The notes: generated by a model not told the origin, from the sequence alone. Numbered from the whole stretch's first letter, positions 16,026 to 49,807 are shown. The stretch is 63,784 bases of DNA, filler included, from Octopus bimaculoides (GCF_001194135.2; 6 parts of 6 records of this genome joined end to end with filler, not necessarily neighbours in it), one strand, 5' to 3'. Numbers and translations are program-made.

Positions 16026-16073
16026 CTGTAGCATCACGTGATTTCAGCGTAAATTATGCTTCCTCAGCAACAG
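16026..16073 (-). ncRNA. Hammerhead-like motif, probably inactive (G at position 17)
   Basis: CUGUUG-CUGAGGA-AGCAUA auu UACGCU-GAAA-UCACGUG-AUG-CUACAG. Same family as 16436-16483, in inverted orientation. Confidence 0.6.
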
Positions 16074-16435
16074 CTGCTCAAGCATCGAATGCTACATTGA
16101 AAATGTGTCAAATCGATATAGTTTAAGACTGACTAAACAGTCAGTGACGTCACACAAAACTGGAGAGCTGTGTATAAATTAGCTATTAGCAACGGAAACA
16201 GTTTTTGTAACAAATATTAATTTGCATATCCAACGTAACTTGGATGTGTTGTCAAAAACCTTGTAGACTGCAGTAATCGTCTTGAAAAATCATTTCTTAT
16301 AGGCGTTGGGTACTAAGAAGCACAGATTATATCGGTTGACGACATTTCGTCAGCACCAGCGGATGGAACTGTTGTATCAGTGTTAATCTATATCTGTTTG
16401 ACGGATTTTTGATCTGGTATTCGATGCTGGCGTAC

Positions 16436-16483
16436 CTGTTGCTGAGGATGTACAATTTACGCTGAAATCACGTGATACAACAG
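16436..16483 (+). ncRNA. Type-I hammerhead-like motif, weakened stem II
   Basis: CUGUUG-CUGAGGA-ugua caauu uacgcu-GAAA-UCACGUG-AUA-CAACAG. Perfect 6-bp stem I; palindromic stem III AUCACGUGAU. Confidence 0.65.
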
Positions 16484-17505
16484 ACTTTAGCATGTTTCAA
16501 ATGTCGGACATGCTCCCATACTTCTCATGCACATCAATGACCTCCACGTTGCTAACTCCGTAAGAGATGCCACGCAGTGGAACTGAACCCCGAACCATGT
16601 GGTTAAGAAGGGAACTTCTTACCACAAAGCCAGTTCTGTACCTAATCATAATTTATATGCTAACATAATTTAAAACATTGATAATAATAATTATATTCGG
16701 ATCTAAAAGAGAAACTGCAAAAATAGTTTAACTTTCTTCCCACCTCTGAAATAAAAAAAAAAAGAAAGAGAAAATGAAAAGAGACATTTTCTGCTTGTTC
16801 AGTTTTCTTCGGAAAATGGCGGAGTCAAAGTTGCTATCAAAGAAAAATAGTGAAACTGAATGACACTGCATAGATTAATACTGGATAAATAGTATTACAT
16901 ATATAAATATCCATTAAATTGCACATGAAGTATTAAAGGTGAGTACGACGTAGTTCTTAATATTGTAAAATTTTGAAGGTGGCGAGCTGGCAGAATCGTT
17001 AGCACGCCGGGCAGAATCGTTAGCACGCCGGGCAGAATCGTCAGCACGCCGGGCAGAATCGTTAGCACANNNNNNNNNNNNNNNNNNNNNNNNNNNTGGC
17101 AGAATCGTTAGCACGCCGGGCAGAATCGTTAGCACGCCGGGCAGAATCGTCAGCACGCCGGGCAGAATCGTTAGCACACCGGGCAGAATGCTTAGCAGCA
17201 TTTTGTCTCTTTACCTTCTGAGTTCAAATTCCACCGAGGTTATCTTTGCCTTTCGTCCTTTCGGGGTTGGTGAAATAAATACCAATTGAGCACTGAGGTC
17301 CTCGAAATTGCTGGCCTTGTGCCAAAAATTTGAAACCAATACTAAAAAACTTTGAAGTCACTCTCTTCAACAATAAAGTGCAAATAGAACATCAAATCCT
17401 GTGCAAAACTTTCGGAAAACGCATGCAATATTTCATTCTGTTCTTGAAAACATATCAATGGCAAGTTATATTTCGATAGATATAATGCAATATTGAATCA
17501 CTTAC

Positions 17506-17610
17506 TTGCTGCTCTGTCAGCCAAAAGCACAATATCAGTTTGGTTTCTGCATTGAATACTATCAGTGAAACACAGTTCTGCCTTACAGTTTAATGGCTTT
17601 AGTAAAATGG
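17506..17610 (-). CDS. ITIH-like gene exon, start of the ITIH C-terminal region (LCF motif)
   Basis: tag|CC...A|gtaagt, 105 nt, phase 1-1. Reads (A)ILLKPLNCKAELCFTDSIQCRNQTDIVLLADRAA, resembling the LCF....G..L.L..D segment of ITIH C-termini. Downstream exons were not found; a scaffold join lies at 15524-15623. Confidence 0.78.
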
Positions 17611-18908
17611 CTAGAAATACAAAGTAAAACAAATAGAAATAATTTCCAAACGTAGCAGTTTTCTATTAATAAAATGTGTGAATGTAAATATGTTTATGTA
17701 TTTTCACTAAGTAAATGACAGTCACACTCATACACATATGGTGGTACGCATATTTGTGAATGAAATACTAAAAGAAAAGACTTAATAGAAACGCAAAGCA
17801 GTAATGTGTACATACCCTAAGCATATTTGAACTATTAATAAGTTTGTAAACGAAAAAAATCAGTCCTTTTCTGTTACTCGGACAGAAAGCTACGAAACAA
17901 ATATATTATGGAATTTATATCCTGTAATAATATTGGTTTCAAATGTTGGCACAAGGCCAGGGATTTCTGGGAGGAAGTAAGTCGATTATATCGACCCCAG
18001 TGTTCAACTGGTACTTATTTTATCGATCTCGAAAGAAGGAAAAGCAAAGTCGACCTCAGAGGGATCTTAACTCAGAACGTAAAGACGGACGAAATATCGC
18101 TAAGCATTATTGTCCGACATGTTAACAAATCTGCCAGCTCGCTGCCTTATTCTATAATGATATTGAAAAGATACAAAGTTTTCTCTGTTCGTTTCATAAT
18201 AGGTTAATCAACCGTAAATTTCCATAGAAGAGTTTTTTTAATGATTAAAAAAACATAGTAACTTAAGTGAACTAATTAGTGGAATATTCAGCTTCTAAAT
18301 AACTAAATACCTTGATTATAACACATTAACATATTTAGAAATAAATTATGATAATTTATTATAAACAAATAATTGATCATCTTGGTTGTGCCATATACCT
18401 ATATATCTTATTTCGATATGGAGCTTTAGTATGAAACAAAAACGTTAATATTAACATAAGATATACGCATATTAATCTTGGGGAAAACGGCAACAGTTAT
18501 AAACCATCCCAAAAGATTTATTAAGAGCTTAACATTGGACAGTTGCTTAAAAAGAGCCTAAACTGTCTAATGGGTGTCGAATGTGTGAACAGATAAAATA
18601 TTCTTGAAGAAAATAGTGTCGATGGTAGCGCGCAGCATTACCACCATTCAATACAAATCACATACAAAATTCTTTAATATATTGGTATTAATGACGAAAG
18701 GGTGTGAAGAATAATTTTAAATTTTACATCTTAAATCTAAGAAACGAAAGTTGCTGACTCATTTTTAATATTTAACTCTTTACAATATTTATACATTACA
18801 AATGTGTCAATATATTGGTTGGAGTATCTCGATAAAGAATTAGGCATATTTAAAAGCAAAAAGGTATCATTTTAAAAACGTGTAAATAAATGTAACGTGT
18901 TTTCTTAC

Positions 18909-48901: not shown

Positions 48902-48989
48902 ATGCAGTACGACTGTTTCAAGTGGCTCCATTTAACTGAACAATGCAACCATCACATCAATTTAAACGCAGGGCTATCCTCAACTGCAT
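48902..48989 (-). ncRNA. Degenerate hammerhead-like motif (C3->U)
   Basis: AUGCAG-UUGAGGA-~57 nt-GAAAC-AGUC-GUA-CUGCAU; perfect 6-bp stem I. Confidence 0.5.
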
Positions 48990-49402
48990 AAATAAATAGA
49001 ATTTGTATTTGCATCTTACACCTTTAACTGGTAATTAACATCTTCATTTGGGGTCTTCCTCTACCCAGCCTCCTTTATAGACAATCACTTATACATCTCC
49101 TAAAATCCCGACAATATTTTTGACCATACCCAACTATTAACCCACTCCTGCCGACCATTCTAAACAGACACTGTCCTCTAGCCTTAGATTTGGTAGTTGA
49201 TAAAAAAAAGACTAATAAATGAAAAATGAACCATAATCATTTACAAGCTATGACCCTTACAAACTTCATACAATTCTTAGAAGTGTAGTATATTCTGAGC
49301 TACAGTAGTAGCAACATGGACTCTTTCCCTCTTCTTGCTCTATTAGAGAATTTGAGTAAAATTATATTAATGTGTCCAACTGATTAAAAATTCTATTTAT
49401 TT

Positions 49403-49490
49403 ATGCAGCTGAGGAAAGCCCTGCATTTAAATTGATGTAATGATTGCATTGTTCAATTAAATGGAGCCACTTGAAACAGTCATACTTCAT
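49403..49490 (+). ncRNA. Degenerate hammerhead-like motif (intact CUGAGGA/GAAA boxes, mismatches in stems I and III)
   Basis: AUGCAG-CUGAGGA-~57 nt-GAAAC-AGUC-AUA-CUUCAU. Confidence 0.45.
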
Positions 49491-49712
49491 CACCTCTTGA
49501 TATCCTGTTGCTTATTTTGATTATATTCACCTTACTTTGAGTTGCACGGATAATACTGCTCTGACTTGGTGCTTCAACTTAAGTACCTAACTCAACTGAA
49601 TCTCAATTATATACATACATATATATACAAATATACATACATACATATATATATATATATATATATATATAAATAATAAATGGAGCAAAACACATATAAA
49701 CAATGAGTTCCT

Positions 49713-49807
49713 TTAATTCCTACATATGTTTCAAAATATATGTGTACTCTACTCCAAAGAAGTGAGAGGTGCTGGAATTGCACATATATTCATCATCAAG
49801 GAACCAA
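49713..49807 (-). ncRNA. Degenerate hammerhead-like motif (C3->U, U.U at the base of stem II)
   Basis: UUGGUUCC-UUGAUGA-U-GAAUAUAUGUG...CACAUAUAUUU-U-GAAAC-AUAU-GUA-GGAAUUAA. 8-bp stem I (2 G.U), 11-bp stem II, palindromic ACAUAUGU stem III. Confidence 0.6.

Follow-up and report, generated by a model that had tools for sequence, protein, structure and literature searches.

Seven hammerhead ribozyme motifs listed by a first-pass annotation between positions 16026 and 49807 of a 63,784-nt stretch of Octopus bimaculoides DNA (GCF_001194135.2; hereafter the window) very probably represent five independent and mostly decayed insertions, which belong to three protein-coding families of Penelope-like elements (PLEs; families B, C and D) and one noncoding retrozyme family (family A). 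All four families carry type I hammerheads, and their palindromic stem III likely permits cleavage as a dimer; family A probably borrows the enzyme of a PLE, and the RNA of family B may be made by RNA polymerase III (Pol III). Hammerheads in PLEs and retrozymes across animals have already been described and an octopus Hydra family has already been listed, which makes the motifs mostly ordinary; an additional nucleotide following A9 and a U.U pair at the base of stem II have likewise been published. What is unusual is family B alone, with transfer RNA (tRNA)-type A and B boxes at the start of its repeat and a coding strand almost without TTTT.

Five spacers of the form N44-TTAATTAATTAA-N44 (3688-3787, 15524-15623, 33088-33187, 48723-48822 and 61119-61218) divide the window into six scaffolds, and the motif-bearing pieces, on three of these, were located on contigs C5, C19 and C16 of the genome assembly (G000). 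The motifs at 16026 and 16436 are the arms of one insertion, as are those at 48902 and 49403; seven motifs therefore amount to five insertions. The motifs had been presented as one hidden ribozyme system of about 34 kb. Seven motifs do fall inside 34 kb of window coordinates and they share a common architecture, but the spacers and the mapping refute a single locus. Moreover, the stem III palindromes differ between families, the elements fall into two PLE clades, the motif density is not above that at other loci and most copies have core or stem defects. A coordinated system at this locus is accordingly extremely improbable.

All eight strings, the seven motifs and a half motif, were found where they had been placed and in type I order, but only one of the seven, at 20774 (-), passed a strict hammerhead descriptor. 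The type I layout (CUGANGA, GAAA, UH and three stems) is present in the family majorities and, in strict form, in one of the seven window copies. In the remaining copies, CUGANGA is replaced by CCGAGGA (33208), UUGAGGA (48902) or UUGAUGA (49713), the cleavage position is occupied by G (16026), stem II is broken (16436) or stems I and III are broken (49403). The single strict match in the window is ordinary for the genome, with no enrichment, because the flanks of other loci gave two matches in 213 kb (0.47 per 50 kb).

That the motifs are chance matches is hardly credible. Chance does hold for the half motif, which lacks the type I layout, and an Rfam search of the window, with E ≤ 1 as the limit, recovered no hammerhead; of its 116 matches, nearly all were microRNA-like and fell on simple repeats. 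However, the strict descriptor gave any match at all in only 1 of 200 shuffles; a relaxed descriptor found five matches in the window, four of them motifs listed earlier, against a shuffle mean of 0.76, and none of 25 shuffles reached five. Related PLE loci bear further motifs of the same type. Core and palindrome are restored in the majorities of four unrelated sequences: the CUGANGA/GAAA core and the stems are present in the majority of every family alignment, and stem III is self-complementary in each, in line with the first-pass annotation on this point.

Searches of G000 gave 48, 692, 2941 and 872 first-look candidates for families A, B, C and D, respectively, and 30 loci per family were fetched, all of them best matches to the window copies. 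Within these best matches, all three core parts were recognized by pattern in 9/34 (A), 26/43 (B), 14/35 (C) and 19/30 (D) copies. In all four families the 3' ends are fixed, the 5' ends are ragged and head-to-head (inverted) arms are frequent, a footprint described for PLEs (PMC8557442, PMC3846280). The genome thus does carry abundant hammerhead-bearing mobile families of the Penelope-like and retrozyme kind, as had been proposed: all four are genome-wide repeats with PLE-type ends. They are not, as was also proposed, unknown repeats, since three of the four are the ends of protein-coding PLEs whose open reading frames (ORFs) were recovered. A single ORF with a telomerase-like reverse transcriptase (RT) and a GIY-YIG endonuclease, the hallmark of endonuclease-bearing (EN+) PLEs, was found for B, C and D, in the case of C from linked pieces. 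Duplexes of the stem III palindromes have predicted energies of -3.5 to -12.9 kcal/mol, and dimer cleavage is likely made possible by such pairing between two RNAs; the cut would be expected after AUA in A, GUU in B and GUA in C and D.

Family B is represented twice in the window. A 5'-truncated pseudo-long terminal repeat (pseudo-LTR) without a tail (20723..20888, -) contains the hammerhead 20774-20819 within the first ORF codons, and a second stretch, overlooked in the first-pass annotation (5665..6620, +), contains the 3' part of the ORF (RT thumb and GIY-YIG), which is 76-78% identical to a locus elsewhere in the genome (L261), followed by a tRNA-like head with A and B boxes; this stretch breaks before the hammerhead. 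In L261, an 855-codon open frame lies between pseudo-LTRs, with an RVT_1 match (E 1e-10) and 37% identity to an Anolis protein over ~95% of the query; two further loci (L271 and L272) also have an ORF between pseudo-LTRs. The L261 protein has DKG, a CxC between GIY and YIG and no linker zinc finger. By motifs and similarity, family B is assigned to the pseudo-LTR of a Penelope/Poseidon PLE. It shares with described members of that group (PAc, PMC11167929; Adineta Pen2a, PMC3846280) the DKG, the CxC in GIY-YIG, the missing linker finger, the ORF start inside the pseudo-LTR and a one-sided tail of 30-40 nt. With minimal hammerheads (PMC4209133) it shares the extra nucleotide after A9, G10.1-C11.1 and a short palindromic helix III. 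The B cut site lies inside the ORF because the first ATG is ~35 nt upstream of the hammerhead core; the cut site of the Anolis element PAc is likewise inside the ORF (PMC11167929). Unlike Penelope/Poseidon PLEs, the family B pseudo-LTR starts with tRNA-type A and B boxes and its coding strand is almost without TTTT.

The pseudo-LTR of family B consists of the tRNA-like head, (AAT)n, the hammerhead and the tail within ~300 nt. The A box was present in 28/30 heads and the B box also in 28/30, and the 5' ends of full copies pile up at the head. As in tRNA-derived short interspersed elements (SINEs; consensus PMC8969392), the boxes are ~33 nt apart at the 5' end. This compact order would suit an independent SINE of tRNA origin that uses the enzyme of a PLE, and most of the 30 head-selected loci run on into the hammerhead with no common sequence upstream. 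Yet at two loci (L217 and L223) the sequence continues beyond the tail into the ORF, and in 3 of 30 (L225, L228 and L232) the ORF-side spacer lies upstream of the head, in L232 together with the end of the endonuclease. The ORFs flanked by pseudo-LTRs in L261, L271 and L272 weigh further against a SINE; L261 by itself largely refutes this reading, which we regard as very unlikely. Whereas tRNA-derived SINEs are noncoding and depend on another element, the head and hammerhead of family B belong to an ORF-bearing element that inserts with a PLE footprint, and classification as a SINE was therefore rejected. Solo B copies may nevertheless spread like a SINE.

Two-armed insertions of family B carried the tail on exactly one arm in 24 of 28 cases, where 14 would be expected if the arms were independent (P about 9e-5); the 28 were hand-picked from 59 distinct loci, with single-armed, truncated and complex loci left out. 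As separate observations, L217 and L223 are internally deleted copies whose heads are fused to different ORF positions, in both cases at one short GCCC match. Short fold-backs, ranging in length from 4 nt up to an entire arm, precede the full-length heads (L213-L241); they occur as AC and GT versions of a single hairpin, and one copy (L220) shows two rounds of fold-back.

It is possible, with a likelihood just short of even, that Pol III initiates the RNA of family B at the tRNA-like head and continues across the ORF until it reaches a T-run in the flanking DNA. The element has the layout of a Pol III unit, with A and B boxes at its 5' end and almost no T-runs inside. Across 20 copies of the 2.75-kb coding strand (40.9 kb), 11 TTTT were counted, or 0.27 per kb compared with 2.15 expected, while AAAA in the same copies occurred at 12.29 per kb compared with 12.3 expected. 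In another set of copies (33.7 kb), 13 TTTT runs were present. The runs are nearly all private, one site being common to L261 and L264 and one, in the spacer, occurring in 2/20 copies. Nine Neptune-like ORFs of the same genome showed no depletion (30 TTTT observed, 24 expected), nor did eight same-clade loci from elsewhere (41 observed, 30 expected), none of which had both boxes in their short flanks. Because the B copies share one ancestor, the real T-run test is of one sequence; it gave P of about 0.003-0.04. When the B protein was back-coded with control codon use, 4.45 runs were expected, with P(0) 0.007 and P(≤1) 0.04.

Several results weigh against a Pol III transcript of this kind. The B copies are not independent, and L261 alone has one run against 4.6 expected (P 0.052), or against 2.2 under synonymous shuffling (P 0.31). 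Two Hydra-type ORFs are poor in T-runs as well (L174, 1 versus 3.2; L171, 3 versus 6.6). Rfam called no tRNA on the B head, and ARAGORN in relaxed mode called a tRNA in 3/30 heads. RNA reads from three raw runs of a related organism, mostly 85-95% alike and aligned to B only, were about equal on both strands and tracked the copy-number gradient, with no pile of read starts or ends at the head or the cut site in the three runs. This pattern neither demonstrates nor excludes a Pol III transcript. Independently of this, reads on L276:2000-5000 differed mainly by A>G and T>C (~50 each per run), which could reflect species divergence or adenosine-to-inosine editing.

The alternative is that the head is a captured SINE piece, either inert or driving short pseudo-LTR RNAs only, that the ORF RNA arises by Pol II read-through and that low TTTT follows from an A-rich, T-poor composition. 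The weakness of single-ORF T-run statistics and the resemblance of the RNA reads to passenger transcription speak for it, and Pol III RNAs are uncapped, which leaves the translation of a Pol III product unexplained. It is opposed by the controls with the same T content, which lack TTTT depletion, by the back-coding result and by the pile of 5' ends at the head in full copies. We consider this alternative nearly as probable as improbable. In a fuller Pol III model, family B would be a Penelope retrotransposon that is autonomous and protein-coding, and Pol III would transcribe its whole length from a tRNA-derived promoter in the pseudo-LTR, the codons being kept terminator-free. A dimer-dependent hammerhead in the first codons would remove the start codon at high transcript levels, and the short RNAs behind solo repeats would arise from this promoter as well. 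The model is tentative and merits somewhat less than even credence.

Families C and D are assigned, by motifs and similarity, to the 3' ends of Hydra-clade PLEs. In the window, a family C-related 3' end (33188..33310, -) stops at the end of its scaffold and bears the hammerhead 33208-33296. A second C insertion consists of an inverted arm (48867..49004, -; hammerhead 48902-48989), which adjoins (TA)n, and a direct arm comprising a Hydra-clade 3' noncoding end (49003..49610, +; hammerhead 49403-49490). Family D is present as the 5'-truncated 3' end of another Hydra-clade PLE (49672..50120, -; hammerhead 49713-49807), and a (TA)n run at 49608-49675 is common to the C and D copies.

Long copies of both families have, on the hammerhead strand, a GIY-YIG frame lying 850-1100 nt upstream of the motif. 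For family D, a single frame of L124, containing one stop, encodes both RT and endonuclease and is located ~850 nt 5' of the hammerhead; an alignment of the D and B proteins extends over 450 columns (E 3e-6). For family C, endonuclease with linked RT pieces was recovered rather than a full ORF: among the 20 best endonuclease loci, 10 have C DNA downstream in the same orientation and three more have it upstream and inverted, and in L193 the RT is also present. The predicted fold of L157 (predicted local distance difference test score 74.5) gave telomerase RT as its first and third PDB matches. A Pfam search of the Hydra-type ORFs yielded GIY-YIG matches only, and a PDB sequence search with alignment A1 found nothing, although the fold search of the PDB did find RTs. 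At other loci of this RT group, more hammerheads occur, with a long stem II and palindromes of 8 nt.

The proteins show the Hydra marks DKT, CxxC and CxH near the C end, no CCHH and no CxC inside GIY-YIG, with a CxCX5C linker in C. Copies with (TA)n no more than 60 nt from the 3' end numbered 21/30 for C and 13/29 for D, compared with 0/30 for B. These features agree with the clade as described in PMC8557442, where the defining marks include DKT, CxCX5C and (TA)n targets, and where a C-terminal GIY-YIG, CxxC/CxH, the lack of CCHH, hammerheads and inverted 5' copies are also found; an octopus family, Hydra-1_Obim, is in file S1 of that paper (Craig et al. 2021). A Nematis assignment was dropped in favor of Hydra on clade definition and motif content. 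Counting against Hydra, the CxCX5C linker is degenerate in D, and RWK was seen in none of the three ORFs recovered here, which are N-terminally incomplete, while RWK or RWR was present in 8/17 homologues. Families C and D also differ from Hydra-clade PLEs in the 850-1100 nt between stop codon and hammerhead and in a long stem II with ~60 nt between the boxes, which file S2 of PMC8557442 may already show, the comparison being by description. Separately, asparagine-rich inserts were noted in the Hydra-type ORFs of L124, L172 and L173; such inserts are known from Adineta PLEs (PMC3846280).

Family A is a 343-nt circularly permuted noncoding unit, with head-to-tail repeats at two loci (L059 and L032). 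Its window copy is a head-to-head insertion. The minus arm (16032..16379, -) starts just before one cut site and spans 343 nt to the next hammerhead, comprising a hammerhead 3' half (16369-16379), one unit and the hammerhead 16026-16073, which has G at the cleavage position and is likely inactive. In the plus arm (16368..16483, +), the hammerhead 16436-16483 retains intact boxes and an AUA site. Other copies wrap around the unit, and their ends form two clusters ~35-40 nt apart, as read by eye. Family A fits a non-LTR retrozyme: metazoan members (PMC7229834; bioRxiv 10.64898/2026.07.22.740005) are likewise noncoding head-to-tail units, in a class range of 170-400 nt, with a type I hammerhead. 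Mussel units measure 350-390 bp compared with 343 nt here, and axolotl HHR_Amex2 has the same U.U at the base of stem II. Unlike metazoan retrozymes, family A occurs mostly as dispersed insertions of 1-1.6 units with PLE-type inversions, two 3' end clusters and no long arrays; it has a 10-nt palindrome and is known here from DNA.

Stem cells of the family A alignment, under a structure that we drew from that alignment, pair in 78.7% of cases, compared with 75.3% in 500 shuffles (none reached 78.7%) and 33-48% when slid, and 11 of 19 stem pairs are changed on both sides. Family A probably depends on a PLE and borrows its enzyme (bioRxiv 10.64898/2026.07.22.740005). Three results run counter to this picture: a protein partner was looked for and none was found, RNAalifold gave no consensus structure for the alignment, and the window unit folds weakly (z -1.7). 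When 27 family A loci were compared with three PLE proteins, the sole match came from an unrelated B copy. The U.U at the base of stem II in families A, C and D was considered as a novelty and rejected; it is described for axolotl, and related loci show G-C, G.U, A-U and U.U. Two unrelated-looking hammerhead motifs (L172:510-570 and L126:6360-6420) have the 10-nt stem III palindrome of family A and an AUA site, and mixed dimers between families might form.

A mechanism modeled on PMC11167929 would have the PLE protein nick both DNA strands and prime reverse transcription at two neighboring RNA sites. Such a mechanism would account for the fixed 3' and ragged 5' ends, for the head-to-head arms and for the one-sided tail. 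On the same source, the ribozyme may be protein-assisted and its cleavage is probably not needed for insertion, and by PMC4209133 cleavage would be dimer-dependent and of low rate. In family A the ribozyme probably trims multimeric RNA; in family B, whose cut site falls within the ORF, it probably limits the amount of full-length RNA. Dimer cleavage was reportedly described by Lunse et al. in 2017. Within the B ORF, we infer, it would lower expression when the RNA is abundant, and that full-length and short RNAs alike come from a Pol III promoter is, on our own reasoning, a proposition of slightly under even likelihood.

The half motif (47368-47395, -) falls within the 3'-terminal part (47193..47400, -) of a DNA transposon that has terminal inverted repeats, and it is not part of a hammerhead: GAAA is found there in 0/14 relatives, and the repeat is unrelated to family D. 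The repeat around it has a transposase-like frame, although a Pfam search of its transposase pieces gave no match; judged by a motif, the element is Tc1/mariner-like. Further motif candidates at 47977 and 46200 had one and two matches among the retrieved loci, self included. A fifth hammerhead family at ~55790, also overlooked earlier (55790-55840, +), has 431 first-look candidates, inverted arms and a retrozyme-like appearance; CUGANGA was present in 10 of 11 motifs displayed in register (12 loci), stem III is palindromic in most copies, and repeats ~380-400 nt apart were seen in four loci. The window also contains host gene exons with von Willebrand A domains (26403-27287 and 27815-28189, -), a very common SINE-like repeat (16989-17345, 47400-47510 and elsewhere; 134 matches among retrieved loci), whose 21-nt start is in tandem at 16989-17197, and a DUF6451 match (51104-51415, +) that is probably the 3' fragment of a long interspersed element.

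A literature search, covering few subscription papers and leaving Repbase and Dfam (which may hold the families) outside its scope, found nothing on hammerheads of octopus PLE families beyond PMC8557442, no Pol III-type PLE promoter and no tRNA-headed, TTTT-poor PLE. If the Pol III reading of family B is true, a 2.75-kb coding retrotransposon would be a Pol III product, and the question would arise how its RNA is translated without a cap, or whether one polymerase supplies the mRNA and another the template RNA. A fixed RNA start would also make the mechanics of PLE inversion easy to follow, with one of the arms anchored at +1 and a single arm bearing the tail.

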